This document shows positions 17,251 through 39,582 of a stretch of 64,000 nucleotides of DNA, piece after piece. Position 1 is the first letter of the stretch. Every line of letters begins with the position of its first letter. Location: the NCBI GenBank assembly GCA_017463365.1, contig JAFTPH010000031.1, positions 9,072-73,071 on the forward strand, given 5' to 3'. This DNA comes from Bacilli bacterium. Lineage in GTDB: Bacteria > Bacillota_I > Bacilli_A > ML615J-28 > CAG-313. The notes below the pieces were generated by a model. It saw only the letters and a list, made by a program, of their open reading frames with translations. It did not search any database and was not told the origin of the DNA. The position numbers and the translations under genes were made by a program.

Positions 17251-18472
17251 ACAATAGATATATAGGTATTATTAAGTTTTCGCTATCTATAGCTGAGACA
17301 TTTTCTTTTGTACATAGAATTGCTCCAGTTCCAAGAGGAATTAGAGATTTTTTTAATAAATTGAAGGCTTTAATCATAGAAACATTAGGATTATTCGATT
17401 TTTTGATTTCTAATGGGTAAATTAACCCATCTTGTTCAATAATAATATCAATTTCGTTATTATCTCTGTCATGATAATAATAAAGTGGTGGTTCAATGCC
17501 AAGGTTTAAATAAGAGTTTCGAATTTCATTAATCACATAGTTTTCTAATATAGCTCCATTAAGAGCTCCATTTAGTAAAATTTCACTCGATGAATATTTA
17601 GTTAAATAAGCGACAAGTCCAGTATCAAAAAAATACATTTTAGGATTTTTAATAGTTCTTTTTAATAAATTATTAGAATATGGATTTAAGTAATAAATAA
17701 TATCTGATTTTTCTAATAAAGCTAACCATCTTTTTGCGGTATCGTCACTAATTTCTACATCTACAGCAATTGAATGTATATTTAAAAGTTGTCCTATTCT
17801 GCAAGCCGCTGCTCTAATGAATTCAATAAACTTAATTTGGTCAATGCCAGACATTTCTTCTCTAATATCTCTTGATATATATGTTTGAAGATAACTGGAA
17901 TAAAAAACATCTCTATTAGAATATTTTTTACTAACAAGTCCTGGCAAACTCCCTGTCCATATTCTTTCAAATATTAAAGAAACATCAGCTGCTTCATAGT
18001 TCTTTTGTTTTTCTAACAAAACGTCTAAATCTAAAGAAAAACGACTTAATGTATTTTTTCCATATAGTTCGTGTTGTGAAATGGAAGATAAATGCAAGAT
18101 GGCTGTTCTTCCAGCAAGAGATTCTTGAGCCAAAGTCATTAGTTTATAGGCTTGAGATCCAGTTAACCAAAAGCTACCAGCAGGAGCTCCTTTATCTATA
18201 GCCATTTTAATATAGGAAAAAAGTTCTGGTGCGTATTGAATTTCATCTATTAAAACTGGTGTTGGATGTAACTTTAAAAACATGCTTGGGTCATTTTTAG
18301 CCAAAGCTCTTTCTTGTAAATCATCTAATGTTACAATATGTCTATCTTTGGACATAATGTGTTCCAACATAGTTGTTTTTCCCACTTGTCTAGGACCAGT
18401 AATAAGAATACATGAATATTCTTGGGATAAATTTAAGATTAAACTTTCCATATCTCTTTTAATGTATTGCAT
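17249..18472 (-). CDS. AAA-family ATPase with C-terminal DUF4143-like domain
   Basis: Walker A ILITGPRQVGKTT and Walker B VLIDEIQ. The length and C-terminal half are typical of the COG1373 ATPase family. Confidence 0.8.
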   Translation of the reverse strand: MQYIKRDMESLILNLSQEYSCILITGPRQVGKTTMLEHIMSKDRHIVTLDDLQERALAKNDPSMFLKLHPTPVLIDEIQYAPELFSYIKMAIDKGAPAGSFWLTGSQAYKLMTLAQESLAGRTAILHLSSISQHELYGKNTLSRFSLDLDVLLEKQKNYEAADVSLIFERIWTGSLPGLVSKKYSNRDVFYSSYLQTYISRDIREEMSGIDQIKFIEFIRAAACRIGQLLNIHSIAVDVEISDDTAKRWLALLEKSDIIYYLNPYSNNLLKRTIKNPKMYFFDTGLVAYLTKYSSSEILLNGALNGAILENYVINEIRNSYLNLGIEPPLYYYHDRDNNEIDIIIEQDGLIYPLEIKKSNNPNVSMIKAFNLLKKSLIPLGTGAILCTKENVSAIDSENLIIPIYLL

Positions 18473-22124: not shown

Positions 22125-22493
22125 GTGTGTAAAAATAGAGAAATACCAGACGATATTTTAAAAAAATTATCTCAAGAAAAGAAAAAAATAATTAATATTC
22201 CTTATATAAAAAGGGTTGTTGGAGAGACTATTGAATCTATGGAAAAAGATGTAATAGAGAAAATTTATCTTTTTGGTAGTTATGCAAGAGGAGAAGAAAC
22301 AAGTAATAGTGACATAGATTTAAGAATAGAGGGAAAAGATGGGATGAGCTTATTTGATGTTGGATACATTATTTATGAAGTAGAAGAAAAAACATGTAAA
22401 AAAGTAGATGTAATATCAGGGGACAAAATAGATGAAGTGGTATTAAACGAAATAGGAAGGGACGAAATTTGTATATATGAACAAAAAAGATGA
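22125..22493 (+). CDS. MNT-type nucleotidyltransferase antitoxin
   Basis: LFGSYARGEETSNSDIDL minimal nucleotidyltransferase motif. Overlaps the downstream HepT gene. Confidence 0.75.
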   Translation: MCKNREIPDDILKKLSQEKKKIINIPYIKRVVGETIESMEKDVIEKIYLFGSYARGEETSNSDIDLRIEGKDGMSLFDVGYIIYEVEEKTCKKVDVISGDKIDEVVLNEIGRDEICIYEQKR

Positions 22494-22803
22494 ACAAATA
22501 ATTTATCATATAAATAATCATTATCAAGAATTCAAATTGATAAAAAACTATGAAGATTTTGTTTCAAATAATATTATTAAAAAAGCAATAATATTAGATT
22601 TGATTCAAATTGGATATAATGTAAATAAACTTAGTTTTGAATTTCAAAAGCAAATAAATAAGATAAACTTAAGGGGAGTTGTTGGTATTAGAAACCATTT
22701 GGTTCATGGATATGGAACAATCGATGATAAGATTGTTTGGACCGCAATAAAAGAAAATTTGCCAGATTTCATTTTTGAAATAAACAATATTAATTTAAAA
22801 TAA
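22477..22803 (+). CDS. HepT-like HEPN (DUF86) toxin
   Basis: Rx4HxY motif (IRNHLVHGYG), small size, overlap with the MNT gene. Confidence 0.85.
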   Translation: MNKKDEQIIYHINNHYQEFKLIKNYEDFVSNNIIKKAIILDLIQIGYNVNKLSFEFQKQINKINLRGVVGIRNHLVHGYGTIDDKIVWTAIKENLPDFIFEINNINLK

Positions 22804-24380: not shown

Positions 24381-24404
24381 ACAAAAACATATTAAATCGT
24401 TTCT

Positions 24405-24431
24405 ATATTGAGACGATTTTTTTTTTTTTTT
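24405..24431 (+). terminator. Terminator with T15 tract
   Basis: Stem AATCGTTTC / GAGACGATT followed by 15 consecutive T (24417-24431). Confidence 0.7.
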
Positions 24432-24530
24432 GTCAATTTTAATAATTTTCGTTTTTTTAAATAAACGAAGTGAATTTGACAAAATTTGGAAAATAATATA
24501 AAATATTAGCATACAAGGAGGAAAAACAAA

Positions 24531-24956
24531 ATGAAGAAATTTAAAAGAATATTTTTTGGGGTAGCGTTGTTGGTGGTATTATGCATTTTTACTATAGGAA
24601 CAATATCAGTAAATGCAGCAAGAATGATTAGAGAAGATGATAATGATCTAGGAGTAGTTTTATATTCATTAAATGATAAAGAATACTATGTAGAACTAGA
24701 TGAAGAAAATAATTGTGGATATGTTATCGAGGTTAAAAATGGTGAAGAAAATGTTATAGGAACATGTAGTATTACAGTTATATTCAGTGATGAAACAAAT
24801 GAAGTTATTGAGTATACTGATGTAAACACTGATACACATGGCTCAATAGTTATTGTAATCACTGATAATGTTTCTGGAGAAGGTTATATCCAAAATGTTG
24901 ATGGAATATTAGAAAACATATTTGAAGAAGATGAAAAAATTATTTTTATTGAATAA
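24531..24956 (+). CDS. Secreted acidic protein of unknown function
   Basis: Signal peptide MKKFKRIFFGVALLVVLCIFTIGTISVNA-ARM, D/E-rich mature part, strong SD AAGGAGG. TTGACA-17-TAAAAT promoter at about 24475-24503. Confidence 0.6.
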   Translation: MKKFKRIFFGVALLVVLCIFTIGTISVNAARMIREDDNDLGVVLYSLNDKEYYVELDEENNCGYVIEVKNGEENVIGTCSITVIFSDETNEVIEYTDVNTDTHGSIVIVITDNVSGEGYIQNVDGILENIFEEDEKIIFIE

Positions 24957-25097
24957 TTATGTAGCGGGATAGATGTGGTTGGCATTATTTTTAAAAAATA
25001 TTAAGTAAATTATAAGTATACTAAATAAAGTGTTATGTATGAGAGCATCTTTTACCAAAAAAGGTAAAGGGTGCTTTTTTAAAATAAATTAAAGTTG

Positions 25098-25132
25098 ATG
25101 TTGTATTTTCAAAAATCTTTACGATTTACTAG
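25098..25132 (+). promoter_or_regulatory. Island motif copy P1 (GTTGTA-N13-TTACGATTTACTAG)
   Basis: ATGTTGTATTTTCAAAAATCTTTACGATTTACTAG. One of four near-identical bipartite sites in the element. Confidence 0.45.
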
Positions 25133-25198
25133 TTGTAGAATAAGTTTAAAACATTGTTAGCTTGTAAATTGTATATAAAGATAAATTTTTTAATTGGT

Positions 25199-25241
25199 GG
25201 TTGTAATTTTGACTTATTTTTACGTGATACATAGTGAGGAG
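25199..25241 (+). promoter_or_regulatory. Island motif copy P2, directly upstream of the sigma-factor gene
   Basis: GGTTGTAATTTTGACTTATTTTTACGTGATACATAGTGAGGAG. Confidence 0.45.
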
Positions 25242-25283
25242 TAAGTTAATAAAAGCGCTCCTCGTTATTCGTAGGAGGGAAAA

Positions 25284-26012
25284 ATGAATACACTAATAAA
25301 AAAAGTATTAGAATATCAACAGAAAAATGATGAATTTCTATTTGAAGATATCATTGATGAATTAGATAAGTTAATTAATATTCAATGTTCAAAAATTGTA
25401 AAATACTATAAAGAAGATTTAAAACAAGAATTATTATTTGAAATATTCAAAGAAATACCATATTATAAACCTGAAAAAGAACTAATTAAAGATAATCTAG
25501 AATTTAACGAAATTATTATAATATTAAAAAACATAACTAAAAGTAAATATTATAAATCATTTAAGAAGAAGTACAAATTTGAGGGTGACTTATTTAATTT
25601 AAAAGACATCACAACAATGATTAATGTAATTAATGAATTTTATTTATTTTGCAATGAAAATCAATTTAGAAAGTATATAGATGTTATATGTGAACGTAGA
25701 AGGGTTGATTTTTGTAGAAAGTATAAAGTAAGTGAAAACTCGAAAAATATTAGTTTAAATGTTGTAGCAGATGACGGTGAAGAATTTCTTTATAAATTAA
25801 TTAATAAAACATCTGAAATTAAAAATTATGAAATAGACTATAGCTTATTATCTAATAAAGATGTTAAATTTCTGAAATTATTTTTTGATGGAAATGAAAA
25901 ATTGACTGAAAAAGAAGTTGCTAAAAAATTGGGTGTTACTCAGCAAGCTGTTAGTAGTATGTTAAAAAGAATTAGAGAAAGATACAAAAATAAATTTAAT
26001 AACTTGAATTAG
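25284..26012 (+). CDS. Sigma-70-family RNA polymerase sigma factor (region 2- and region 4-like segments only)
   Basis: The N-terminal segment resembles sigma region 2 (FEDIIDELDKLI...YYKEDLKQELLFEIFKEI). C-terminal region 4 HTH LTEKEVAKKLGVTQQAVSSMLKRIRERYK. Confidence 0.6.
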   Translation: MNTLIKKVLEYQQKNDEFLFEDIIDELDKLINIQCSKIVKYYKEDLKQELLFEIFKEIPYYKPEKELIKDNLEFNEIIIILKNITKSKYYKSFKKKYKFEGDLFNLKDITTMINVINEFYLFCNENQFRKYIDVICERRRVDFCRKYKVSENSKNISLNVVADDGEEFLYKLINKTSEIKNYEIDYSLLSNKDVKFLKLFFDGNEKLTEKEVAKKLGVTQQAVSSMLKRIRERYKNKFNNLN

Positions 26013-26047
26013 AAGTGAAAAAAAATTTTTTCACTTTTTTTATTTTT

Positions 26048-26092
26048 AATGTTGTATTTTTAAAATTTCTTACGATTTACTAGGCGAGGAGG
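26048..26092 (+). promoter_or_regulatory. Island motif copy P3
   Basis: AATGTTGTATTTTTAAAATTTCTTACGATTTACTAGGCGAGGAGG, ending about 10 nt before the ATG at 26102. Confidence 0.45.
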
Positions 26093-26101
26093 TAAAAAAG
26101 G

Positions 26102-26386
26102 ATGGACAAGTTAACAATAGTTGTTTCAGTAATAGGGATTATTGGAACATTATCTAGTATCTTTTTTGCTTACCTTGCATGTAAAAAAAGTAATATGCAA
26201 GAGCAGAAAGTAGATGGCAAGACTGAAGGTGCAATGTTATCGGATATCGGATACATAAAAGCTTGCGTGGATCGGGTCGAAAAGAACTTAAATAAAGTAG
26301 ATGAACGATATAGGAATATTGCAGAAAGACTTGCTAAAGTAGAAGAAGCAGTGGCTAATGTAACTAAAAGAGTAGATGAACTGTAA
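26102..26386 (+). CDS. Small membrane-anchored coiled-coil protein (possible lysis accessory)
   Basis: N-terminal TM helix LTIVVSVIGIIGTLSSIFFAYLA, then a heptad-like coiled coil reminiscent of XhlA-type proteins but with the opposite topology. Confidence 0.45.
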   Translation: MDKLTIVVSVIGIIGTLSSIFFAYLACKKSNMQEQKVDGKTEGAMLSDIGYIKACVDRVEKNLNKVDERYRNIAERLAKVEEAVANVTKRVDEL

Positions 26387-26409
26387 AAAAATAAAAAAAT
26401 TTTAGTTAC

Positions 26410-26455
26410 CCCGTTGTTTTTTTGAATTTTCTTGCATGTTACTATAGTGAGGAGG
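26410..26455 (+). promoter_or_regulatory. Island motif copy P4, upstream of the holin-to-Rhs operon
   Basis: CCGTTGTTTTTTTGAATTTTCTTGCATGTTACTATAGTGAGGAGG. Confidence 0.45.
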
Positions 26456-26541
26456 TAAAAAACATGTTTAATTATTTAGAAAAATTAACACCAATTTAAA
26501 TTAAATGAAATTAAAAAATTTATTAAAGGAGGAGTAAAATT

Positions 26542-26832
26542 ATGGATTTTACAAGTGTACCTATTATAGTTGTATGCTGCTATATCATAGGAGAAATTTA
26601 CAAAGTCTTATTTAAGAATAAGCAAGAATCATACAAACTAATACCAATAGTAATGGCTATCATTGGAGGATTATTAGGGATTATTATTTATTTAACAAAT
26701 CCAGAAATGATTTTAAATGCAGAAAATATTTGGATAGCATTAGGTATTGGTATTGTAAGTGGTGCCAGTTCTACTGGTGCAAACCAAATTATAAAACAAA
26801 TTTTTAAAAAAGGAGAAACAAAAAATGAGTGA
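26542..26832 (+). CDS. Phage-type holin
   Basis: 96 aa with three hydrophobic helices and the charged C-terminus GIVSGASSTGANQIIKQIFKKGE, typical of clostridial-phage holins. Confidence 0.7.
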   Translation: MDFTSVPIIVVCCYIIGEIYKVLFKNKQESYKLIPIVMAIIGGLLGIIIYLTNPEMILNAENIWIALGIGIVSGASSTGANQIIKQIFKKGETKNE

Positions 26833-27940
26833 ATTTGTAGATAGAAAAGGAACAAATTTAAATAAAAAGAAATTAAAAATTGTAGATATTGTTAGAGATG
26901 TATCTACAGGTGAAATTAGTGAACTTTATGTAGAGGAATTTAGAGATGATTCTGTTGGATTAGAAAGTGTTGGAACAGCAATAACAGCAGCAAATTTAAA
27001 TACTATTATTAAAAGTATGATTGAAAGTGAAGTGTATCATCAACTAAACAAAACAGATGAAGAAAAAGTGACAGAAGATGCACAAAAGTTGACTATTGAT
27101 ACATTAGTTGATGATAATTTTGATCTACCTTCTGTTGGGTATAATGGATCAACTATAACTTGGTCAGTAGTATCTGGAACTGCTATTAATATTTCTTTAA
27201 GTAAAGCAATTGTAGTTAGAGGAACAAGTAATTCAGTTGTAACATTAAAAGCAGTGATTAAAAATGGAACAGCAACAGCAACGAAGAACTTCTCTGTAAC
27301 AGTGTTAGCTCGAGAAAAAACTGATACAGAAAGAGTAAATGCTGATGCTGAAGCAATCAGTGTTCCAAGTTCAACAACTAGTTCGTTTACTTTATCAACA
27401 TTAGGTACAAATGGTTCTACAATCACATGGAGCGTTTATTCTGGAACTGGTATTGTAGTAAATAATGGAATGGCATATGTAACTAGAGCATCCACAGATA
27501 GTGATGTGACATTAAAAGCTATTGTTAAATATAATACAACATCAGTAACAAAATATTATAACGTTACAGTTTTAGCAGAGGAAGTTGTAGAAGTAACAAC
27601 AGACTTTTCACCAAAAACATTCAGCACTTCATGGACACAAGAATATGGTAATTTACGTTCAGCTAACTTAACAATTGGATCAAGTGATACAAGTGCATTA
27701 TATATAGATGTAGAAAATGATGATAGTGCAAGTATTAATGTTGTTGTAAATACAAATAGTTCTAGTTTAGTAAGACTAACAGTTTCAGAAACAAGTGGAT
27801 TAAATTCTCTTGTTGGATATACAACACCTGTATTTACTTTTTATGTACATGTATATTTAGATAATGATAGAAGTGTAAAATTGGGTACATTAACAGGTAC
27901 TGTAACATATCATTTTTCATCAGTTACACCAGATGATTAA
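26825..27940 (+). CDS. Tail-fibre-like protein with two Ig-like repeats
   Basis: N-terminus FVDRKGTNLNKKKLKI...VGTAITAANLN resembles Firmicute phage fibre proteins. Two roughly 62-aa repeats (27125-27310 and 27389-27577) with G.NGSTITWSV.SGT...VTLKA.....T..TK...VTVLA. No signal peptide. Confidence 0.45.
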   Translation: MSEFVDRKGTNLNKKKLKIVDIVRDVSTGEISELYVEEFRDDSVGLESVGTAITAANLNTIIKSMIESEVYHQLNKTDEEKVTEDAQKLTIDTLVDDNFDLPSVGYNGSTITWSVVSGTAINISLSKAIVVRGTSNSVVTLKAVIKNGTATATKNFSVTVLAREKTDTERVNADAEAISVPSSTTSSFTLSTLGTNGSTITWSVYSGTGIVVNNGMAYVTRASTDSDVTLKAIVKYNTTSVTKYYNVTVLAEEVVEVTTDFSPKTFSTSWTQEYGNLRSANLTIGSSDTSALYIDVENDDSASINVVVNTNSSSLVRLTVSETSGLNSLVGYTTPVFTFYVHVYLDNDRSVKLGTLTGTVTYHFSSVTPDD

Positions 27941-27961
27941 TAAATAAAGGAGGAAATACAA

Positions 27962-29335
27962 ATGAAATTTTTAAAATTAAAAGAAAAATTAAGAAATAAA
28001 TACCAATCATTAGATAATGGTAAAAAAGGATTTAAAAGAGTAAAAAGTAAAATTTTTGAAAATAAAAAAGAAATGAATGCAGATAATTTAAAAATTATTG
28101 GGATTACGGGTAGTGCAGGAAAATCAACGACAGCTTTAATAGTTCATGAATATTTAAAAATGTTAGGATATAAATCAGTTTTATATTCAAGTGCTAAAAT
28201 TGATTCTCCAGCATCAATTATTAATCCAGACGAAGCATGTGAAATTTCGTTTAATTCTGAAGAGGAATTATTAGATATTATTGAGGAAGTTGAAGCATAC
28301 GGAGCAGATTTTCTTGTTTTAGAAGTAAATGAAAGTACTATCGAAAAAGGTATTACAAAGGAAATTCCATTTGCGGTTAGAGCATTAACAAATTTAAATC
28401 CTAAACATAATTTAGAACGCTATTCTGATACTGAATATGTAGAAATTAAAAAAGCATTTTTTAAAGATATAGAAGATGATTGTAAGTGTGTTCTAGGTTT
28501 TCAAAGTTACAATAAAGAACTATTAGATGAATTATTAAAATTAAATGATTTTGAAAAATTAGTATTTACAACTAACTATATTGCAAATGTTAATGGAATT
28601 GATCCTAATATGGCAACATGTTTATTAACTGGTTTAGAATCTACTTTAGATGGATTAAAACTTAACATTAAAGTTAAAGGTGAAAAATATAAATTAGAGT
28701 CTAAATTAATGATGTCATATAATGCATTGAATTTTGTTGGTGCTATAACAATTTTAGAAGCATTAGATATTTTAGATGTTAAACAATTTGAAAAATGTAT
28801 TTATGATATTAATATTCCGGGTCGTGCTGAAGTATTTAAAGCAAATGGAAGATTAATAGTTGTTGATACACATTTACCAAAAATGCTTGAGTGTCTAAAA
28901 AGTTTTAAAGATAATGGATTAATTAGCAAAATTAAAGTAGTAGTTGGATCAATGGGACATGGCTTCAAAACATGGGAAGATAGATTTAATTCTGAACAAT
29001 TTAAAGAGATACACAAGGAAAATAAAAAATTCGCGATGGGATTATTAAAACAATATGCAGATTTTGTATATTTAACAGAAAACGATAATGCTGCAGAAAA
29101 TGTATTAGATATTTGCCTAGAACTTCAAGGATATCTAGAAGGTGATGTAGCATCTGTAATTGTTGAAGATAGAAAAGATGCTATTAGTCAAGCAATTGTT
29201 GAGTCTAAAGAAGGAGATGTAATTTTTATTTCTGGGCGTGGTAATAGAAGAGTATTATGTAATACAAAAACTACAATGAAATTATTAAAAGATAGTGAAG
29301 TTGTAAAAGAAACATTAATTAAAATAGGATGGTAA
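27962..29335 (+). CDS. Divergent Mur-ligase-family protein
   Basis: P-loop IIGITGSAGKSTT about 45 aa from the N-terminus, LVLEVNES, TNLNPKHNLERY in place of TN...DHLD, and C-terminal GDVIFISGRGN. Confidence 0.75.
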   Translation: MKFLKLKEKLRNKYQSLDNGKKGFKRVKSKIFENKKEMNADNLKIIGITGSAGKSTTALIVHEYLKMLGYKSVLYSSAKIDSPASIINPDEACEISFNSEEELLDIIEEVEAYGADFLVLEVNESTIEKGITKEIPFAVRALTNLNPKHNLERYSDTEYVEIKKAFFKDIEDDCKCVLGFQSYNKELLDELLKLNDFEKLVFTTNYIANVNGIDPNMATCLLTGLESTLDGLKLNIKVKGEKYKLESKLMMSYNALNFVGAITILEALDILDVKQFEKCIYDINIPGRAEVFKANGRLIVVDTHLPKMLECLKSFKDNGLISKIKVVVGSMGHGFKTWEDRFNSEQFKEIHKENKKFAMGLLKQYADFVYLTENDNAAENVLDICLELQGYLEGDVASVIVEDRKDAISQAIVESKEGDVIFISGRGNRRVLCNTKTTMKLLKDSEVVKETLIKIGW

Positions 29336-29339
29336 TTTT

Positions 29340-32300
29340 ATGGATAATAGTAAAATTAATCAAACGGAATTAAGTTATAAATGTGGTGCAGGTGAGTCAA
29401 AGGTTAATTTATATACTGGAAGAATGGTTTTTAACGTTATTGATGTAAATGTAGGGACAGATTCTTATGAATTAATTTTATATCATATCTATAATTCGCA
29501 TTTAGGTTTACCTGCTGGTGTAAATACTAAAGTAGGTTCTAAATGGAAATTAAATCTACAAGAGTATATTTATAAAGTTGGTACTGATTATTATTATATT
29601 GATGCTTCAGGAATGAAAATTAACTTTAAGTACCTATATGAAAATACATATTATGATACAACAGGTTTAGGAATGCAATTAAAATTATTAACTAATCAAA
29701 TCGAAATTATAGATATGGCAAACAATAAAAAAATATTTAGAAATAATCGATTAGAAGAAATAATTTCTGGTGAAAATAGCTCAATTATAAAAGAATTAAT
29801 ATATACGGATAATAAATTAACATTAATTAAAGATACAAGAAAACCAGACACAAATATTAAATTAGAGTATAATAATGATTTATTAAGTAGTATAATTGTA
29901 ACAGTAAAAAATAAAGAGCAATTAAGACTTAAATATTATTACAAAGAAAATCAATTAGTAATGATTTCTAAAATTGTTGATGGATTTGAAAAAGTTAGTA
30001 CTTTGTTTAGATATACTGGTGATAATTTAACATATGCCGTTTGCTATCAAAATAAATCAGCACTTAAATTCACATATAATTCAGCTGACAAAGTAATTAG
30101 AGTTGATACAGGTGTTGCGAAAGTTAAAACAACGAAAATTACAAAAAATAATGTATTTGTAGGGGAAAGTATTTATTGTGGCGAAAAAGATTACGTTGGT
30201 GATGTAACATATACTAATAATTATGAAATTGATGATTGTATTACGGAATATGGACAAGATTTATTAACATATAACATTATTGAATATAATGGAACTAATA
30301 GTATTGTGGAAAATGAAAAAGGTTTAAAAAATGTATATTACTTTAATGAAAATGGATTTATGGTTTCTATTTTAGAATCAGTTAATACATCAAATACAAA
30401 TTTAAAAACATTAAAGAAAATGCCGGGAAAATCTATGCTAAATGAAAACGGAGGGGATGATTCTGAAATAATTAATACTCAAAATGCTTTCAATTTGACA
30501 ACCATTTCGGAAATATCAACTTCTACAATAATGAGCGGTAGAAAAAAATCATTAGATGATTACCGTGGGAGAGAATGCGGTAATTATATAAATTATATAT
30601 GTAGTTTTTGGTTAAAATTATTAGAAGAAGTGGATAATTCAAAAGTACAATTGATTATTAATGATGATGATGATAATAAAAGTATTGTTTCATTTGATAA
30701 TTCTGCAGTTGACGCTTGGCAAGAAGTAAGAATGCCAATAAAAATTTTAGATGATAATATTAAGAGTATAAAACTAGAATTTTTAGAAAAAACTGAAAAA
30801 CATATAAAAATTGTTGATATGAAATTATACTATAGTTCAACATATAAAACTATGTTAACTAATGGAACAACATGGGCTTGTCTAGATGAAATACAAAAAA
30901 TTATTTACATTAATCAGAATGGTATAGAAGATGAAATAATATTAGATGATGATAATTTTGTTACCGAAAAAGATTTACAAATGACATATATGCACAAATT
31001 TAAATTATATGGAAATTCTAATAATTCAAATGATTATTATCCTTTATATTTAAATGATGCCACGAAACAATTAATTGTTAGTAGTTCGAAATTTTATTAT
31101 AAAATAAATGATGAAGTAAAAGAATTTCCTGTATTATTTGGGAATGATGACTATTCAACTAAAATTAAAGTTCAAAATACAAGGGCACAATATTTTATTG
31201 AATCATTATCGCCTGATGGGGATGTGTATATTTATAATATTCCACATTTTTTGAAATCAATTAATATTGATGGTGTATTTTATGATTGTTTATGCAATAT
31301 TACTGAAGGGAATAAGAATATAAAAGGTTCTAAAGAACATGAGTGCAGTTTTAAAGTTGAATGTGTTGATTTGAAGGGCAAAAAAGTTTTAACTAGAGAT
31401 GAATATGGCGTTGTAAATATATATAAATACAATAATAATGGTATTTTAAAAAATAAAATATTAACTAGTGAAAAAAATACTTCAAAAAAAATTGTGTATA
31501 ACATAGAAAGGGAATTAAATATCGAAAATGATTCAAATGAGTATTTGGTAAAAAGTGAAGATAATAGTAAAATGCAAATAAATACTAAGTATGATAAAAA
31601 AGGTAACCTAATATGTACATCAATGTTTGGATTAGAAAACCAAGATTCACAAGAATATGTTCAACAATATCATTATTCTAAATTAGATAATTTTCTTTTA
31701 TCAGTAAAAGATAATTTGGGAGGGATTAATAATATTAAATATGATGAAATGGGAAGAATCATTGAAATATCTCCTAAAAAGTATAATGATGCAAATTATT
31801 ATGGTTTTAAATTTAAATATGATAATTTTGGTGAGCCTACACATTTATATTATACATTTAAACAAGGAAATGATATCATTGATATAAAATTAGTAGAAAA
31901 AATAATTGATCGAACTAATAATTCTATCATAACTAAATATTATAGGGATGATTCTGATGAACTTAACGCAGATATTAGTAAAACAGTTTTAGATTTGTAT
32001 GGAAACATTAAGGAAATTATAATTGGTGATAAAAAGGTTACATATAAAAATCATAATTTATGGGAAAGTCCTCATTCTGCTAATGTTGAAACTATTGAAG
32101 ATGAATTAGATAATAAAACATATACATATAAATATGATGATTTTAATAATTTAACTAACTATTCTATTAATGATGAAAATGGAACAATTAGTGTTTATAA
32201 ATCAGACAATGATACTATTGAATGTGAAGAGATTTTTAATGAAAGCCATTTTAATCCTTCTGCTGGTATTGCTACTATAAAATATGAAGAAGATGTTTTA

Positions 32301-34577
32301 TTTTCTCCAAGAATTAAAGAAACAACACATCAAATATATTATGCATATCAGGGAAATCCGACAACATATGATTATGATGACCTAGGAAGGGTAAATAAAA
32401 AATATGTTAGTTATATAGATGGATTTAGTAATTTTGTAAATATGACACAAAATATAAATTTTTTAGAAAAGACTAATTGCATAAATAAAATTACTACTTC
32501 ATTTGTAGATGAAAATAAAAATAGTACAACATTTCAATCGGAATATAAATATAATCAATTTGGAAATTTAGAAGAAGATCATGTATCTATTGATGATAAT
32601 ACTAATAAATTTGTTAGAAAATATAAATATAATGAAGCTAATCAAATAATACGTGAAGAAATAGTTAATAGCAATATTACATATGAATATTATTATAATA
32701 ATGATGGTAGTATTGATTATATTAATACAAATGGGATTCAAAAAAATTACAATTATCAAAATGGGAGAATTTCATTAATTACTGAAGGTGGACTGATAAA
32801 AATTCCTTTAACATATGATAATATTGGAAATGTTAAAACTTTTGGGGCAAATTCATATTCTTGGACTAGAGGAAATTTATTGGCATCTTTTTGTAATAAT
32901 AATAGTATTACTAAATATCATTATAATGGATTTAATAAAAAATATAAAAAAGAATTGACTAATGGAATAACAATAAATTATAATTATGATAATGATAAAA
33001 TTATTTCTGAAAATTGGAGCAATGGAAATCAATTAAAATTTAGTTATGATGCTACAGGAATAACAGGTTTTTTATATAAAGAAAATGAAGGGATAATGAA
33101 TAATTATTATTATTTTGTTAAAGATGCTTTTGGTAGTGTTATATCATTGATTTATGATGGAAAAGAAGTTGCACATTATGAATATGATTCATTTGGAAAT
33201 TGTACTGTAACCAACTATACGAAGGAAAACATTGGTGATATCAACCCTATTAGATGGAAAGGAATGTATTATGAAATTGAAAGTGATGTCTATTTAATTG
33301 GAAATGATACATATTGTCCTTCATTAAGACAAAATATATCAATGAAATTATTAGAAGATATTGCAACTAGTGATTATGAAATTTATAATATATATCCTTA
33401 TCAATTAACAAATTCAAATATGTTAAATATGACTTTTGAACAAAATAATTTATTATCTTCGTTAGAATTAGTTTATGAACCAGAAAAAAAATCAAAATGG
33501 ACGAGATTCTGGGAGAAATTCTGGAGGAGTATTTTTGGGAAGATTATATCAGTTTGTTTGGCAATAATCGCTTTTGCACTTACCTGGTGGCAAGGTGGTT
33601 GGTTAGGAGTGTTATTTTTAGCAATTCCATTGGTTCTTACTTTAGGAGTGGGATGCTTAGCAGCAGGAATTGCAAGTAAACGAACAGGCAAAGGTTTTTG
33701 GAACGGTTTTGTTAATTATTTAAATAGAAACTGGTCACAAGTTGTAGGAACAGAAATGGCATTGTATTTGGTTTCGTTTGGTATTTCAAAAATAATGAAA
33801 TTAGGAACAGCAGCTGATTGTTTTAAAGCAGGTACATTGGTTCTAACATCTATCGGATTGATAAAGATTGAGGATGTTAAGGCGGGAGACAAAGTATGGA
33901 GTTATAATGAAGATACTAAAGAAAAGGAACTTAAAACAGTAAAAAGATTATTTATTAATAAAACTAAAGAATGGTTATACATAACTATAGTAAATAACGA
34001 GACTATGCAAGAAAATGAAGTTGTATGTACAAAAACACATAAAATTTACATTAAGAATAAAGGATGGATAAAAGCTAGTGAAATACTTGAAAATGATGTG
34101 GTTTTATTATATAATAACACTGAGGGAAAAGTGATAAAGAAGGACTTAAGAAAGTTAAGTCAAGAAGAATATACATATAATTTTGAGGTTGAAGATAATC
34201 ATAATTATTATATAGGAAATGATAAAATTTTAGTACATAATAAATGTAAGCCAGAATTTGAAGTGTTAGAGTTTGATGAACGTGCTATTGCGATGGCAAG
34301 AGAAGGTAATCCAACTTTTCAAACTTTTAGGAGAAGATTATTTAAATATCAAAATGAAATAGATCCTACTATGTTCCATACATATAAAAAAGGTTTAAGT
34401 CCAATAATCAATAATAAAAAGATAATTCTTCATCATCCAAAAGGACGAGTTGGTCCAAACTTATATAATGTTGTGGGGGTTACGTACCAACAACATCTTA
34501 GTATTCATGCTATAATTGGCTATCGAAATGCCCAGTGGGATGATGTAATATATCATTTAGGTAAAGGAGTATTTTAA
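29340..34577 (+). CDS. Rhs/YD-repeat polymorphic toxin with TM segment, pretoxin HINT domain and LHH-type HNH/EndoVII nuclease C-terminus
   Basis: Many YD repeats (YKYNNNG, TKYDKKGN, IKYDEMGR, YDYDDLGR, YKYNQFGN, YEYDSFGN). Rhs-core end NPIRWKGMYYE at about 33241. Hydrophobic helices at about 33530-33790. HINT from Cys1494 (33819) to HN1633-1634 (34236-34241). LHH motif at 34428-34436. Confidence 0.9.
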   Translation: MDNSKINQTELSYKCGAGESKVNLYTGRMVFNVIDVNVGTDSYELILYHIYNSHLGLPAGVNTKVGSKWKLNLQEYIYKVGTDYYYIDASGMKINFKYLYENTYYDTTGLGMQLKLLTNQIEIIDMANNKKIFRNNRLEEIISGENSSIIKELIYTDNKLTLIKDTRKPDTNIKLEYNNDLLSSIIVTVKNKEQLRLKYYYKENQLVMISKIVDGFEKVSTLFRYTGDNLTYAVCYQNKSALKFTYNSADKVIRVDTGVAKVKTTKITKNNVFVGESIYCGEKDYVGDVTYTNNYEIDDCITEYGQDLLTYNIIEYNGTNSIVENEKGLKNVYYFNENGFMVSILESVNTSNTNLKTLKKMPGKSMLNENGGDDSEIINTQNAFNLTTISEISTSTIMSGRKKSLDDYRGRECGNYINYICSFWLKLLEEVDNSKVQLIINDDDDNKSIVSFDNSAVDAWQEVRMPIKILDDNIKSIKLEFLEKTEKHIKIVDMKLYYSSTYKTMLTNGTTWACLDEIQKIIYINQNGIEDEIILDDDNFVTEKDLQMTYMHKFKLYGNSNNSNDYYPLYLNDATKQLIVSSSKFYYKINDEVKEFPVLFGNDDYSTKIKVQNTRAQYFIESLSPDGDVYIYNIPHFLKSINIDGVFYDCLCNITEGNKNIKGSKEHECSFKVECVDLKGKKVLTRDEYGVVNIYKYNNNGILKNKILTSEKNTSKKIVYNIERELNIENDSNEYLVKSEDNSKMQINTKYDKKGNLICTSMFGLENQDSQEYVQQYHYSKLDNFLLSVKDNLGGINNIKYDEMGRIIEISPKKYNDANYYGFKFKYDNFGEPTHLYYTFKQGNDIIDIKLVEKIIDRTNNSIITKYYRDDSDELNADISKTVLDLYGNIKEIIIGDKKVTYKNHNLWESPHSANVETIEDELDNKTYTYKYDDFNNLTNYSINDENGTISVYKSDNDTIECEEIFNESHFNPSAGIATIKYEEDVLFSPRIKETTHQIYYAYQGNPTTYDYDDLGRVNKKYVSYIDGFSNFVNMTQNINFLEKTNCINKITTSFVDENKNSTTFQSEYKYNQFGNLEEDHVSIDDNTNKFVRKYKYNEANQIIREEIVNSNITYEYYYNNDGSIDYINTNGIQKNYNYQNGRISLITEGGLIKIPLTYDNIGNVKTFGANSYSWTRGNLLASFCNNNSITKYHYNGFNKKYKKELTNGITINYNYDNDKIISENWSNGNQLKFSYDATGITGFLYKENEGIMNNYYYFVKDAFGSVISLIYDGKEVAHYEYDSFGNCTVTNYTKENIGDINPIRWKGMYYEIESDVYLIGNDTYCPSLRQNISMKLLEDIATSDYEIYNIYPYQLTNSNMLNMTFEQNNLLSSLELVYEPEKKSKWTRFWEKFWRSIFGKIISVCLAIIAFALTWWQGGWLGVLFLAIPLVLTLGVGCLAAGIASKRTGKGFWNGFVNYLNRNWSQVVGTEMALYLVSFGISKIMKLGTAADCFKAGTLVLTSIGLIKIEDVKAGDKVWSYNEDTKEKELKTVKRLFINKTKEWLYITIVNNETMQENEVVCTKTHKIYIKNKGWIKASEILENDVVLLYNNTEGKVIKKDLRKLSQEEYTYNFEVEDNHNYYIGNDKILVHNKCKPEFEVLEFDERAIAMAREGNPTFQTFRRRLFKYQNEIDPTMFHTYKKGLSPIINNKKIILHHPKGRVGPNLYNVVGVTYQQHLSIHAIIGYRNAQWDDVIYHLGKGVF

Positions 34578-35176
34578 TGACAAAAGAAGAACTTATAAAA
34601 GAATTAATTGATTTTGTTGAAGGAAAAATAGAAGTAAATATTATCTATGAAGACCTTCTTAAAGGAAAATTTGATAGTTTGTTAGATGTATATTTAGGTG
34701 ATAAAATTGGAATGTATGGAAAAAGTAGTGTTTTAGAATGCCTTAAAACGTGTGGTATTAAAAATTCACATGCTAGATATGGTTTTTGGCATGCGGTAGA
34801 AGCATATTTATATTTTAATGGGTACACATATAGTCCATCAAAAAAATTATATAATGAATGGTCATATAAAGTTGATATTCAACCATCATACATTTATATA
34901 GAAGATGATGTAATACTAAATAAATATATTAATGAGGCACCAAAAGGATTAAATAAAACCGAAACAAAAAAATGGATTAAAAATAGAATTAAACAAGATT
35001 TTAAATATGATAAAACTCCACCTAGATGGGTTCAGAATCCAGAATGGCCAATAGTAAATGGTGTACCATTAATATTTAAAAATCAAACTAAAATGACTTT
35101 AGATGATGAAAGAGTATATTACACTTTTTATCATCCCCAAACGTTAGAAGAAATAGTCATAGTCCAATTCTATTAA
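34577..35176 (+). CDS. Putative cognate immunity protein
   Basis: TAATG overlap with the toxin stop codon. 199 aa, cytoplasmic. Position is typical of polymorphic-toxin immunity genes. Confidence 0.6.
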   Translation: MTKEELIKELIDFVEGKIEVNIIYEDLLKGKFDSLLDVYLGDKIGMYGKSSVLECLKTCGIKNSHARYGFWHAVEAYLYFNGYTYSPSKKLYNEWSYKVDIQPSYIYIEDDVILNKYINEAPKGLNKTETKKWIKNRIKQDFKYDKTPPRWVQNPEWPIVNGVPLIFKNQTKMTLDDERVYYTFYHPQTLEEIVIVQFY

Positions 35177-35390
35177 TATAATAACGGATTTTATATTAAA
35201 ATTTTTGATTATATGTTAAAATCAAATGTAATATTATAAAATTGAATTTAAGAATTGCTATGGATTTAATGTTGCATTTCGCCTTACTTTATAGGCAGGA
35301 TAAGGAAAAAGCAACACTTCGTTGCATTTTCGAATTTCTTGCAAACTGACACGCTCAGCTTTACGCTTTTGTCCGATTATATTGTAGTTA

Positions 35391-35421
35391 AAGGAGTTAA
35401 CTTTTTTGGTTAACTCCTTTG
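35391..35421 (+). terminator. Terminator-like hairpin after the immunity gene
   Basis: AAAGGAGTTAAC-TTTTTT-GGTTAACTCCTTT. Confidence 0.55.
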
Positions 35422-35487
35422 CTTATTTGTAAGGCGAAATGCTTTGTCCACTAAAAAAATTGCCAAATTTCGTTCGACAATTTGGTA

Positions 35488-35860
35488 AAAACGTTAAACT
35501 TTTTAACTAAGACTTTCCATATATAGTGTGGGAAGTTTTTTTATTTTTAAAAATATTTTTAATTTTTTTATAAAAAACGTTTAACTTTTGACTCCTAACT
35601 TTCCATATATAGTGAGGGGACATTTTAAATTTTTTAAAATATTTTTTAAAAACACCCGTACAAAACACGAGTTTCTTTCCATATATATTGAGGGGTTATT
35701 TTTAATTTGAAAAAAAATTTATAACTTTTTTTATAAAAACGTCTAAGTTTTTGATTATAACTTTCCATATATAGTGAGGGATCATTTTAAAATTTTTAAA
35801 AATATTTTTAAAAACACCCCTACAAAACACAAAAACTTTTCCATATATATTGAGGGACTA
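35488..35860 (+). repeat. ORF-free tandem array: five copies of CTTTCCATATATAGTGAGGG in about 162-bp double units
   Basis: Cores at 35514-35533, 35600-35619, 35676-35695, 35762-35781 and 35837-35857. Spacing alternates 86/76/86/75 nt and the flanks are also conserved. Confidence 0.9.
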
Positions 35861-35962: not shown

Positions 35963-36628
35963 ATGGATCAATTTACATTTTATGATTTATATTATGAAAC
36001 ATTTAATGGATTAAAAGATGAAGAGATAGGTAGATTTATTAAAAGAATATGTAATTATGCTTTGTATGATTTAGAAGATGAAGTAAGTAAAAATGATACA
36101 GAAAATTGTTTATTTGAAATAATTTTTCCAACTTTAAAAGAAGCAACATCATTAGAAAAACAAGGAAAAGTTCCGTATTATTTAAATAGAAGTATGAAAC
36201 ATTTTACTTTTAAAATAGCATATGCAAATATAATTAAAACAATTAAAGATGAAAAGTTATCTGGTAAATTTATAAAAGCAATATGTGCTTATATGTTTGA
36301 TGATGAAATACCTGTTGATTTAACTCCACCTATTGATACATATTTTAAATTATTTAAGAAAAGTTTTGACTTAACTAAAACAAGAATTAAAAGTGGACAT
36401 AAAGGTGGAAGTAAAAAGAAAAAAGAAACTATAAATAAAAAAATAGAAACTTTAGAAGATTTTTTAAATAATAATCCTTACATTAATAATGATGTTTATA
36501 GTAAAAGTTTAATATTAAATAAAGATTATAGTCTATTAAATGAAAGACTAAAAACAAATTTAAAATATAAAGATGAAAAAAGTTTATATATAATCTTAAA
36601 AAGTTATGATGAAATTATAAAAGATTAA
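35963..36628 (+). CDS. Hypothetical protein with internal duplication (DUF6291-like)
   Basis: MDQFTFYDLYYETFNGLKDEEIGRFIKRICNYAL and a second KLSGKFIKAICAYMF unit, then a basic KSGHKGGSKKKK stretch. Confidence 0.4.
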   Translation: MDQFTFYDLYYETFNGLKDEEIGRFIKRICNYALYDLEDEVSKNDTENCLFEIIFPTLKEATSLEKQGKVPYYLNRSMKHFTFKIAYANIIKTIKDEKLSGKFIKAICAYMFDDEIPVDLTPPIDTYFKLFKKSFDLTKTRIKSGHKGGSKKKKETINKKIETLEDFLNNNPYINNDVYSKSLILNKDYSLLNERLKTNLKYKDEKSLYIILKSYDEIIKD

Positions 36629-36674
36629 CAAGCAAATGTGTAAGCAAAACTATTTGTTTTGATTTATTATTTAT

Positions 36675-36692
36675 GGCAAATTTGCCTTTTTT
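36675..36692 (+). terminator. Rho-independent terminator
   Basis: GGCAAATTTGCC followed by TTTTTT. Confidence 0.7.
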
Positions 36693-36835
36693 AAAAGCAG
36701 GATAAGTCGTTGCCACAACTGATGATACCAGTTATGACAACTCGACGCCGAAATGAATTTCGGAAGCAAGTAGGACACCTACTTCTAGTTATTAGATAAG
36801 ACTTTGAATATGATGAAACTAATTAATTTAATCCC

Positions 36836-36864
36836 TTGACATTATCGTATTACTACGATATAAT
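36836..36864 (+). promoter_or_regulatory. Consensus sigma-A promoter with palindromic spacer
   Basis: TTGACA, 17-nt spacer, TATAAT. The palindrome ATCGTA-TTAC-TACGAT spans the spacer and the first T of the -10 box. Confidence 0.65.
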
Positions 36865-36893
36865 ATAATCACAAAAAGAAGATTAATGAAAGG

Positions 36894-37235
36894 ATGGATT
36901 TTATTATGTATGAAGAAAAAACATTTGAAGAAATACTAGAGTATCAAAAGAATAATAAACCTATAATTCAAAAGTATGGTAAGTATGGGAATTTAGCTAA
37001 AAAGTATTTAGAAGAATATAACTTTGGTAAATACTTAGTATTAGGTGGAGATTTACCAGAATACTTACATAACATTGATAAACAAGCTAATGAACTTTAT
37101 AATGTAATATATGATAAACTTTCAAAGAAAAAAGAATATCAAAAGACCCAAGACTATATTAAAAACATACAAATAGAAAATGAAATTCAGAAATTAATTG
37201 AAGAAGAAATATTAAATGAATTAGTATATGTGTAG
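36894..37235 (+). CDS. TnpV-like protein
   Basis: KYGKYGNLAKKYLEEYNFGKYLVLGGDLPEYLHNIDKQANE...EEEILNELVY follows the pattern of TnpV proteins from Tn4451-type serine-recombinase elements. Confidence 0.6.
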   Translation: MDFIMYEEKTFEEILEYQKNNKPIIQKYGKYGNLAKKYLEEYNFGKYLVLGGDLPEYLHNIDKQANELYNVIYDKLSKKKEYQKTQDYIKNIQIENEIQKLIEEEILNELVYV

Positions 37236-37244
37236 GAGATTTTT

Positions 37245-37439
37245 ATGAAATGGGTACAAGTTGTAGATAAAGTAGATGAAATAAATACACTAAATGAAAT
37301 TAGAATTAGACTATCAAATGAATTTGAACCTTTAACAGAAACTAATCTATATACCTATGCAACAAGTTTAGTAGATGAAAAATTAGTTGAAGTAATAGAA
37401 AAACTAAAGAAAGGATTAGAAGAAGAAAAAACATTATGA
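37245..37439 (+). CDS. Hypothetical small protein
   Basis: 64-aa ORF with SD GGAG. Its stop overlaps the next start (ATGA). Confidence 0.45.
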   Translation: MKWVQVVDKVDEINTLNEIRIRLSNEFEPLTETNLYTYATSLVDEKLVEVIEKLKKGLEEEKTL

Positions 37440-37651
37440 AAAAAGAAGATACACCAATGCGAATTGCAAGAAGAAATTATGAAGAAAGAAACAAAGAATT
37501 AAGAAAGAAAACAAACGCACAGTTTTCCACATTTATTCCAAGAAGTGATTATGATGAAATAAATGAGTTTTTAAAGAAAAATAATATTACAAAAGTAGAA
37601 TTAATTTATCAAGGATATGAAGCCTTAAAAGAGATGATTAATAAAAAGTAA
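37436..37651 (+). CDS. Hypothetical small basic protein
   Basis: 71-aa ORF, translationally coupled to the preceding ORF. Confidence 0.45.
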   Translation: MKKEDTPMRIARRNYEERNKELRKKTNAQFSTFIPRSDYDEINEFLKKNNITKVELIYQGYEALKEMINKK

Positions 37652-37887
37652 ATATTCAAAGTTTTATCTTCTTTAAAATATTTATAAAGGGAGGTAAAAC
37701 TTATAATTAAAGAAAATAATCTTGTTATTTATGAAGAACAAGGAGATAAAACATTAAAAAGAATTAGAGAAAAGAAAATTGATGATATAGTTTTTGTAAT
37801 TAAATCATCAAGTAAGAAAAATAGTAAAATTAAAAAGAATGAAATAACAAAAAAATTAATACTTAAAAATTTAGAATTTTCACCTGA

Positions 37888-39582
<1,695 letters not shown>

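Follow-up and report, generated by a model that had tools for sequence, protein, structure and literature searches.

Related systems

The locus described here is a predicted operon around an Rhs/YD-shell polymorphic toxin of 1745 amino acids (aa), encoded at 29340..34577 (+) of a 64,000-nucleotide (nt) stretch of chromosomal DNA from a Bacilli bacterium (assembly GCA_017463365.1, contig JAFTPH010000031.1, positions 9,072 to 73,071), and this whole stretch is called the window below. The core of the protein is of an already known kind: Tox-LHH toxins with HINT and RHS, i.e., the same three blocks in the same order, were catalogued by Zhang et al. 2012 (PMC3482391), with HINT read as an autoproteolytic release module. 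An earlier reading of the window, made from the sequence only (hereafter the sequence-only reading), had called the architecture unusual, which for the RHS-HINT-LHH part is not the case. The catalogue differs from the locus in tying HINT toxins to export by type II, V, or VII secretion systems (T2SS, T5SS, T7SS) or TcdB/TcaC, HINT never having been found with type VI secretion (T6SS), and in containing no holin route, no Mur-type ligase partner, no loss of the Rhs protease, and no hydrophobic module (PMC3482391). It is in these latter respects that the locus stands apart: its Rhs protein appears to belong to a clade that has lost the aspartyl protease, carries a conserved hydrophobic module ahead of its toxin tip, and is encoded with a holin and what appears to be a dedicated Mur-type ligase. 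In the literature searched, we found no description of aspartyl protease loss in a diversifying Rhs clade, of a conserved hydrophobic pre-toxin module, or of a dedicated holin/Mur-type-ligase operon with Rhs.

Holin-dependent release of giant toxins without a signal peptide has precedents in the Tc toxins (PMC10847048) and in TcdA/TcdB with TcdE (PMC12150058). The TcB-TcC cocoons of the type 10 secretion system (T10SS) of Yersinia entomophaga (PMC10847048) resemble the protein studied here in having an Rhs/YD cocoon, a C-terminal toxin, and no signal peptide, and in their case a holin cassette of phage origin is coupled to release, probably in only part of the cell population, a coupling that at our locus is proposed from the gene content. 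The Tc system differs in being Gram-negative, in using an endolysin and a spanin, in docking its cocoon on the TcA translocator, and in having an active TcC aspartyl protease, whereas the operon has no endolysin, spanin, or TcA; it encodes a Mur-type ligase and an aBig_2 protein instead, and its Rhs protein carries HINT and a hydrophobic module and has lost the protease. As in a T10SS, the holin (PF16079) is encoded with the cargo in the same operon; a dedicated peptidoglycan hydrolase is missing from it, and a Mur-type ligase occupies a conserved accessory position. The pathogenicity locus (PaLoc) of Clostridioides difficile (PMC12150058, PMC12485765) consists of the sigma factor TcdR, the holin TcdE, the endolysin remnant TcdL, and TcdA/TcdB, and is similar in being Gram-positive and in encoding an alternative sigma-type regulator and a holin with giant signal-less toxins. 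It differs in that its products are host-directed glucosyltransferases of the large clostridial toxin (LCT) type and not Rhs cages with polymorphic tips and immunity proteins, in having no Mur-type ligase, and in using another holin family. To our knowledge, the release of very large signal-less toxins from Gram-positive cells is largely unexplained, the main exception being the still-debated TcdE/PaLoc.

WapA of Bacillus subtilis and other Gram-positive Rhs toxins (Streptococcus suis, PMC12704120) share with the protein studied here the YD-shell, the polymorphic C-terminal nuclease, and the adjacent immunity gene. WapA, however, is equipped with a Sec signal peptide, repeats that bind the cell wall, and an Rhs core of the canonical type, none of which is found in our protein. 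The best structural-sequence matches to the shell of the latter are T6SS Rhs effectors (RhsA, Tse5, Tse15, 8h8a, and 8qja; PMC8765631, PMC10684867), in which a cage likewise shields a toxic, sometimes hydrophobic (Tse5), C-terminal fragment, with transmembrane (TM) helices proposed in some of them to serve membrane crossing; they differ by their PAAR/prePAAR N-termini, N-terminal TM helices, and N- and C-terminal self-cleavage by two aspartates. Teneurins (6FB3, 7ban) have a YD shell with extra non-YD modules and a C-terminal HNH-type domain (Tox-GHH) that stays attached, the Rhs protease being unused, but belong to eukaryotes, where they are type II membrane receptors built with FN-plug and NHL modules, and they possess neither HINT nor an immunity gene. 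Bacterial teneurin-like proteins (PMC13018210) keep the aspartyl protease and use Sec signals, and represent a different system, as do S8-PTS (PMC9424270) and the proteins of a PT-TG survey (PMC13483458), both of which we considered as counterparts of the operon and rejected. The locus offers a compact system, abundant in the human gut, for genetic tests of how giant signal-less toxins are released, and an Rhs lineage that can lose the hallmark aspartyl autoprotease yet diversify its tips is relevant to the question of how cargo is passed on from Rhs cages.

A conserved operon with a probably dedicated Mur-type ligase

Eight genes lie at 24531-35176, all on the plus strand, in the order orf141, a sigma-like gene, tm94, a holin gene, an aBig_2 gene, a Mur-type ligase gene, the Rhs gene, and an immunity gene, and the intergenic gaps from the holin gene through the immunity gene run from -8 to +21 nt. 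The terminator scan returned seven sites against 1.8 +/- 1.4 expected, and from 24419 to 35389 the plus strand has none; orf141 is preceded by a terminator-like hairpin (24394-24419), and two such hairpins at 35389..35539 (+) end the operon. The promoter scan returned a promoter-like TTGACA-17-TAAAAT at 24476-24504, a match that is not significant in AT-rich DNA.

The tm94-holin-aBig_2-Mur-Rhs block recurs in unrelated chromosomal neighbourhoods (L001, L002-4, L005/6, L012, L013, L019, L092-99, L100, and L181/182; P and L numbers are labels of relatives and relative loci, and Q or the query is the Rhs protein of the window). The Mur-like gene stands directly before Rhs in all 11 of the 11 locus types, including L019 and L100, whose Rhs proteins are 21-27 % identical to the query. 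A holin of the PF16079 type is conserved in nine of the 11; L019 gave no holin match, and the L019 and L100 regions were not otherwise examined for one. The sequence-only reading had remarked on a holin near Rhs, and this holin indeed belongs to an operon that is conserved together with the Rhs gene. Identity across loci is 34-61 % for the Mur-like protein, 61-94 % for the holin, and 21-47 % for Rhs; by these figures, the ligase and the holin are better conserved than the toxin that they accompany, as we judge tm94 and the aBig_2 protein to be too. The Mur-like family comprises at least 416 clusters at E<=1e-20, and single members occur in 141-258 collection blocks, with many human-gut samples among them. 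No relative of the Mur-like protein was found in 2.9 million viral contigs. A metagenome scan with the Mur-like alignment was swamped by housekeeping MurE (20-27 % identity), and only L100 was a useful result of it. This pattern of neighbourhood and conservation points to the ligase as a dedicated partner of this Rhs clade.

The ligase itself (27962..29335, +) is a predicted Mur-type ATP-dependent ligase paralogue without MurE domain 1. It matches Pfam Mur_ligase_M (PF08245, E=3e-17) and Mur_ligase_C (PF02875, E=9e-9), both above cut-off, and scores 128.8 bits against the murE model TIGR01085, whose cut-off is 257.3, with a match that begins at profile position 81, i.e., MurE residue 105; it aligns to residues 107-470 of MurE 7b6o. 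The ligase retains the P-loop (GSAGKST), Glu in EVNES, His in NPKH, and a Lys at the carbamyl-Lys position, while the diaminopimelate (DAP)-selecting DNPR motif reads NDNA, and 12 members share the invariant residues G47, T49, G50, S51, G53, K54, E121, H149, K163, R288, and D302. By these features, it is a member of the Mur ligase superfamily that retains the catalytic core and is not MurE. If it is true that such a ligase acts on the cell wall, this would represent a new enzymatic logic for protein export or self-protection. At its N-terminus, where MurE has the UDP-binding domain, the protein carries a Lys-rich extension of about 40 aa (27962-28090).

The Rhs shell and the loss of its protease

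The Rhs open reading frame (ORF) has an ATG start and encodes a protein of 202 kDa, and an intact ORF of 5.2 kb in DNA of 25 % GC is far beyond chance. The exact protein was found in at least six metagenome contigs. The ORF and residue coordinates given in the sequence-only reading are exact (Cys1494 at 33819-33821, Asn1634 at 34239-34241, and L1697-H1698-H1699 at 34428-34436). Its statement that YD repeats fill most of the protein needs correction, since the repeats are very degenerate, with 2 strict and 10 relaxed YD motifs, a weak match to Pfam RHS_repeat (E=1.9e-8), and a match to TIGR01643 (E=5.7e-8). A 15-member family profile (A6) searched against the PDB retrieved the Rhs protein 8h8a (E=2.7e-51, four stretches), Tse15 (E=1e-35), the T6SS Rhs 8qja (E=1e-29), the teneurin-like 9ifo (E=3e-25), TccC2, YenC2, and teneurin-4, the matched stretches listed lying in roughly the final third of the profile, while for the two-thirds before it the assignment depends on relatives with DUF6531 and RHS_repeat. 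Because the family profile strongly matches solved Rhs shells, membership of the Rhs/YD-shell superfamily is secure, yet the query is far from canonical.

A DUF6531-like N-terminal Rhs plug is predicted at aa 21-96 (29400..29627, +), preceded by 20 residues (Pfam DUF6531, E=2.7e-4; its 21.7 bits fall short of the 24.1 required), and DUF6531 is also present in the relatives P0004, P0007, and P0008. The query Rhs shows no signal peptide, since the N-terminal Kyte-Doolittle maximum (19-aa window) is only 0.92. The protein opens directly with the predicted plug, in agreement with the earlier statement that it has no trafficking domain there.

Two relative loci show what look like interrupted toxins. 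The orthologous Rhs gene at L093 (10372-15558) is split into ORFs of 890 and 785 aa in one metagenome and intact (1728 aa) in others, which suggests occasional inactivation of Rhs. At L012 (6200-10624), Rhs stops at 1474 aa, just past the hydrophobic module described below, and a HINT-containing fragment lies about 3 kb on, at about 13487; either the toxin has been cut short and its tip displaced, or the assembly is at fault.

The end of the Rhs core departs from the canonical pattern. The curated Rhs_assc_core model TIGR03696 gave no match to the query at E<=0.01, while it recognised the positive controls, namely the canonical P0011 (E=4e-21) and P0013 (E=1e-15), as well as the distant cassette member L100 (E=5e-20). 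A degenerate core end can be aligned at aa 1302-1376 (NPIRWKG...YCPSLRQ...YNIYPYQLTNSNMLNMTFEQ; 33243..33467, +): where canonical ends read "RYYDP..GRFISAD...NLY.Y..NNP...DPSG", the query reads "DTYCPSLRQNISMKLLED...YNIYPYQLTNSNMLNMTFEQ", with Lys at the first Asp site (in an SMKLLED stretch) and TFEQ at the second. Neither catalytic position keeps Asp in the query or in P0001-P0008. The absence of the DPxG..DP autoprotease signature, which the sequence-only reading had noted, is therefore borne out both by the silent model, whose controls match, and by the alignment. L100 has the full motif, L095 and L098 lack the last DPxG, and the query clade lacks both parts; because of this gradient, the loss of the protease is a derived state.

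Directly behind the core end follows a hydrophobic pre-toxin module (aa 1377-1493; 33468..33818, +), delimited by hydropathy and conservation. Its pattern is W.RFW..FWRS, a first TM helix, a second TM helix with VGG..AGI, SKR.GKGFWNGF.NY.N.NW, and a weaker third helix. Kyte-Doolittle values (19-aa window) reach 1.6 or more solely at aa 1394-1447, with strong helices at approximately 1399-1417 and 1421-1445; of the three or so hydrophobic helices proposed earlier, these two stand, and the third segment (EMALYLVSFGISKI) is weak in comparison with them. The module is conserved in Q, P0001-5, L012, L013, and L015, occurs independently of HINT and of toxin type (LHH, Tox-SHH, Tox-REase-9, and others), and has no Pfam family. 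Hydrophobic helices also follow the canonical, motif-bearing Rhs cores of L100, P0025, P0009, and P0014, and because of this the module is older than the loss of the protease. The cassette-linked Rhs proteins of L095 (10362-15179) and L098 (10367-15358), which have the full accessory set, carry no module after the core, and L098 Rhs has a single hydrophobic stretch at its extreme C-terminus.

The HINT domain

The Hint domain that the sequence-only reading placed from CFKAGTLV to Asn1634 is upheld by profile searches. Cys1494-Asn1634 (33819..34241, +) form a PT-HINT or A-type bacterial intein-like (BIL) domain: PT-HINT (PF07591) matches aa 1500-1634 with E=6.8e-18 (65.7 bits against a cut-off of 27.7), and, of the sequences in the PDB, that of 2lwy, a bacterial intein-like domain, matches best (E=2.9e-20). 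The HINT signature, i.e., Cys1, the block-B T-K-T-H (TxxH), and the terminal V-H-N1634, is complete and conserved, so that the domain appears catalytically complete. The residue at +1 is Lys in the query and Asp, Asp, Asp, Tyr, and Ala in relatives, and never Cys, Ser, or Thr in close relatives. As the +1 residue is Lys, the domain does not look like a canonical splicing intein, and the possibility of a bona fide intein, which the earlier reading had raised against itself, finds no canonical splicing signature. A Cys at +2 after VHN (aa 1635-1636, 34242-34247) is conserved in the query, P0001-3, P0006, and P0018.

Regarding the proposal that toxin release depends on HINT autoprocessing rather than on the Rhs protease, the loss of the protease motif stands, and HINT as a simple stand-in for it does not. 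HINT is present in 6 of the 16 family proteins in hand, and it would seem that it cannot simply be a replacement, because the close HINT-less relatives P0004, P0005, L013, L015, and L019 have likewise lost both aspartates. Downstream, there are orphan fragments whose start falls within HINT and which bring other toxins together with immunity genes, at L001 (16347-16901), L002 (16227-16496), and L007 (11388-12449); HINT therefore probably doubles as a conserved recombination handle for the swapping of toxin tips. No orphan HINT or toxin module was found downstream in this window.

The nuclease tail and its immunity protein

The 111-aa tail behind HINT (34242..34574, +) is a predicted LHH-type HNH/endonuclease VII (EndoVII) nuclease toxin, in whose family profile His1698, His1699, His1719, and His1723 are invariant. 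Taken alone, the query tail is silent with Pfam LHH (PF14411) even at E<=10, and a PDB sequence scan with it returned nothing. An exhaustive HMMER scan of 1.8e9 representative proteins yielded 47 tail relatives, and a 27-member tail alignment (A1) has H64, H65, G68, H85, H89, and W99 invariant, with Leu before HH in the query. Within this family, 18 of 27 members match Pfam LHH (best E=7.3e-9) and 7 of 27 match Col-Pyo_DNase; in the match of the tail profile to the colicin E7 DNase (E=5e-6), LHH falls on ELHH. The family also agrees with the Tox-LHH signature LHH...H...H...W (Zhang 2012, PMC3482391). The AlphaFold2 (AF2) model of the tail (pLDDT 92.9) has a beta-beta-alpha order, with strands at 59-64 and 78-81 and a helix at 82-92 that bears H85 and H89. 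The tail thus appears to be a divergent member of the LHH/colicin-type HNH family, an assignment that holds only via the tail's family; the LHH nuclease named by the sequence-only reading stands on this footing, and a direct Pfam LHH match of the query tail does not exist.

The following gene (34577..35176, +), whose start overlaps the Rhs stop by 1 nt, encodes a 199-aa protein without a Pfam, NCBIfam, or PHROG match. This protein is 38 % identical (E=2e-43) to the product of the ORF that comes directly after P0025. As P0025 is a canonical Rhs unrelated to the query, yet with a tail that shares 52 % identity with the query tail, the 199-aa protein is most readily understood as the cognate immunity protein. 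The LHH subfamily and the 199-aa immunity family would provide new reagents for work on toxin-immunity specificity.

The insert in the shell

A non-YD insert of approximately 325 aa (aa 335-660; 30342..31319, +), conserved in Q, P0001-5, L012, L013, L015, and L019, is a putative receptor-binding module and was found only in Rhs proteins that have a Mur-like neighbour gene. Its AF2 model is mostly beta (mean pLDDT 70.4, pTM 0.65), with a jelly-roll resembling a carbohydrate-binding module (CBM) at about aa 418-507 (30591-30860, +) and a further region rich in beta structure behind it. Foldseek with the insert retrieved the botulinum neurotoxin (BoNT) HC 4fvv (E=4e-4), the CBM16 2zez (prob 1.0, TMt 0.46), the CBM4 1gui (prob 0.98), and the receptor-binding domains of CDTb and Vip1. 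The insert has no Pfam match, and a homology search with the insert alone returned two fragments only, the word prefilter probably being limiting. With moderate confidence, the model places the insert in the jelly-roll/CBM-like fold class. The sequence-only reading had suggested this class and had set the extent of the insert at about 30440-30840, which falls well short of the stretch given above.

Other genes of the operon

The first gene of the putative operon, orf141 (24531..24956, +), has no Pfam, NCBIfam, or PHROG match, and a homologue (40 % identity) stands at the same position in L095. The gene that follows (25284..26012, +) is weakly assigned as a sigma-70-like regulator: it matches the NCBIfam sigma70-ECF model TIGR02937 below its cut-off (E=1.2e-5; aa 20-237 align with positions 3-164 of the 165 in the profile), the phage sigma factor phrog_1740 (E=1.8e-6), and Pfam Sigma70_r4 (E=9e-5). 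A homologue (37 % identity) lies upstream of the L095 cassette, and none was found in the other loci. At the position of the sigma-like gene, i.e., before tm94 and the holin, L002 (5592-7508), L013 (1591-3507), and L098 (5336-7267) encode a protein of 638-643 aa without a Pfam match.

The product of tm94 (26102..26386, +) has 94 aa, an N-terminal TM helix, and a coiled coil, and is a likely phage-derived holin partner (phrog_1863, E=4.4e-16). It has counterparts directly upstream of the holin in L001 (57 %), L012 (57 %), L013 (73 %), L095 (76 %), and L098 (56 %), and L181 has a 94-aa ORF in the tm94 position. The holin (26542..26832, +) belongs to the Phage_holin_5_2 / Hol44 family (PF16079, E=6.9e-14, above cut-off; phrog_1129, E=3.4e-15), and the figure of 61-94 % identity given above refers to L001, L002-4, L012, L013, L092-95, and L098. 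The start of the aBig_2 gene (26825..27940, +) overlaps the holin stop by 8 nt, and its product, a putative surface-binding accessory protein without a signal peptide, contains two copies of the atrophied bacterial Ig domain (Pfam aBig_2, E=4e-21). All complete cassettes have a gene of 186-371 aa in this position; in the gene tables of the blocks from tm94 to Mur, an aBig_2 match was seen in L091 and L095 and weakly in L001 and L098, with no Pfam match in L002, L092, L181, and L182. Between loci, good conservation (about 44 % identity) is confined to roughly the first 73 residues at the N-terminus, and the rest is variable in length. Searches of the operon proteins with Pfam, NCBIfam, PHROGs, and hydropathy gave no recognisable peptidoglycan hydrolase, Sec signal, LXG, WXG, or PAAR.

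Proposed mechanism and alternatives

Holin-dependent release of a folded, signal-less Rhs toxin is the mechanism best supported by these data, and we infer its functional steps from the observed parts list, its conservation, and the pairing of toxin with immunity protein. The sigma-like regulator would switch the operon on, probably in a subpopulation of cells. The folded Rhs protein, and probably the aBig_2 protein with it, would then leave the cell through holin lesions or holin-triggered lysis, in a T10SS-like or PaLoc-like manner, with the Mur-type ligase performing the cell-wall step that is done by an endolysin elsewhere, for which it could alter peptidoglycan precursors or stem peptides. 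On the target cell, the CBM-like insert would bind the surface, the hydrophobic module may aid the C-terminal cargo across the membrane, and HINT would cut at Cys1494 and/or Asn1634 and so free a 13-kDa nuclease that degrades target DNA, the producer being protected by the 199-aa immunity protein. Within this explanation, an uncultured Bacillota species of the gut, low in GC, has on its chromosome an operon for an interbacterial toxin, and HINT is an optional extra in a lineage from which the Rhs protease was already gone; taken as one whole, we hold the explanation to be on balance probable, with modest confidence.

Several observations weigh against it. The export route, the target, and every activity are predictions. 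At L005, no holin is seen in a contig that does cover the region, and the outer relatives P0006-P0008 have neither a holin nor a Mur-like gene upstream. The sigma assignment lies under curated cut-offs, and, with the UDP-binding domain missing from the Mur-like protein, it is guesswork to name a peptidoglycan precursor as its substrate. The model of the insert is of moderate confidence and its fold-search E-values are marginal. Foldseek against the PDB recovered no HNH fold for the tail, the best ββα-Me match being I-PpoI with an E of about 4, a null that we treated as uninformative for so small a fold. Finally, the clade has HINT-less members without any recognisable release protease, and because of these, cleavage may not be essential for delivery.

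A wider version of the same proposal is tentative and, in our judgement, would more probably fail than hold. In this version, the operon is an undescribed, widespread Gram-positive holin-based (T10SS-like) system for the export of folded Rhs cages of approximately 200 kDa, in which a dedicated Mur-type amino-acid ligase replaces the endolysin and modifies peptidoglycan precursors or stem peptides, so that it either opens the wall locally or masks the producer's receptor for the CBM-like insert. The hydrophobic module would be a built-in translocator for diverse tips, and the Rhs aspartyl protease would be dispensable because the module acts in this way.

We think it unlikely that HINT is not a release protease but a self-removing (splicing) or neutral mobile pre-toxin element, the cargo then being the hydrophobic module fused to the nuclease, as in the HINT-less relatives. 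This reading is kept alive by cargo sizes: the sequence behind the core amounts to 19-28 kDa in nine complete HINT-less members and to 41-44 kDa in 6 of 6 HINT-bearing ones (9.7 kDa in the truncated L012), the TM module and tail of the query together make 26 kDa, and the largest natural Tc cocoon cargo is 35.1 kDa (PMC6868009), a limit that is taken from a different, larger cocoon. The same LHH tail is joined directly to the hydrophobic module in P0021, P0041, P0045, and P0048, which are colinear by module and differ in their linker sequences; the +2 Cys is conserved, orphan modules begin inside HINT, and, as Dassa and colleagues reportedly found in 2004, A-type BIL domains can splice without a +1 nucleophile. 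The +1 residues speak against splicing. The best scores are, moreover, to PT-HINT/BIL, families described as autoproteolytic release modules, and a homing endonuclease is absent.

Similarly improbable, in our view, is a role of the hydrophobic module in the producer, where it would tether Rhs as a hairpin to the inner membrane face by the holin, or hold it on vesicles or the cell surface after holin action, making the system contact-dependent. That the two strong helices (aa 1399-1417 and 1421-1445) follow each other so closely is suggestive of a hairpin with both flanks on one side of the membrane, and the module is conserved regardless of toxin type and HINT in an operon with two membrane proteins, tm94 and the holin. 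L095 and L098, however, have the full accessory set and no such module at that position, and the post-core sequence of a canonical Rhs lies inside the cage and is not free to insert in the producer membrane. In T6SS effectors (Tse6 and the prePAAR effectors), hydrophobic helices by cytoplasm-bound toxins serve the crossing of the target membrane, which is the role that holin-dependent release of a folded toxin would assign to the module here.

That the neighbourhood is coincidental, i.e., a prophage lysis module in decay, along with a housekeeping Mur ligase, beside an Rhs toxin released otherwise or by passive lysis, is very improbable: the holin, tm94, and sigma-like proteins do all have phage relatives, a transposon-like element adjoins the cassette, and outer Rhs relatives lack these neighbours, but the cassette order recurs among unrelated flanking genes with the Mur-Rhs pair in every locus type, the genes overlap or lie at most 21 nt apart, the Mur-like protein scores far below MurE cut-offs and lacks domain 1, and neither relatives in viral contigs nor phage structural genes nearby were found.

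Genomic setting

The window is chromosomal, with recF-gyrB-gyrA-serS at its start and a ribosomal-protein operon at its end, and the Rhs ORF lies inside a low-GC island of 22-26 % GC compared with 30-37 % in the flanks (window scan). An origin of the locus as prophage cargo was considered and rejected, as there are no relatives in viral contigs and no phage structural genes nearby. DNA nearly identical to the locus was not found in the plasmid and phage collections, and PADLOC returned no defence-system match.

Between mfd and the island, a gene for a DUF4143/AAA_14 ATPase lies on the opposite strand (17249-18472, -). Just upstream of the island, adjoining small genes at 22125-22803 encode a nucleotidyltransferase (Polbeta/NTP_transf_2) and a HepT-like RNase, which make up an MNT/HepT-type toxin-antitoxin module. 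Directly downstream of the cassette, the transposon-like element (35963-39582) encodes a DUF6291 protein, TnpV, and a large serine recombinase with DUF4368, and a similar recombinase is encoded downstream of the cassette at L096.

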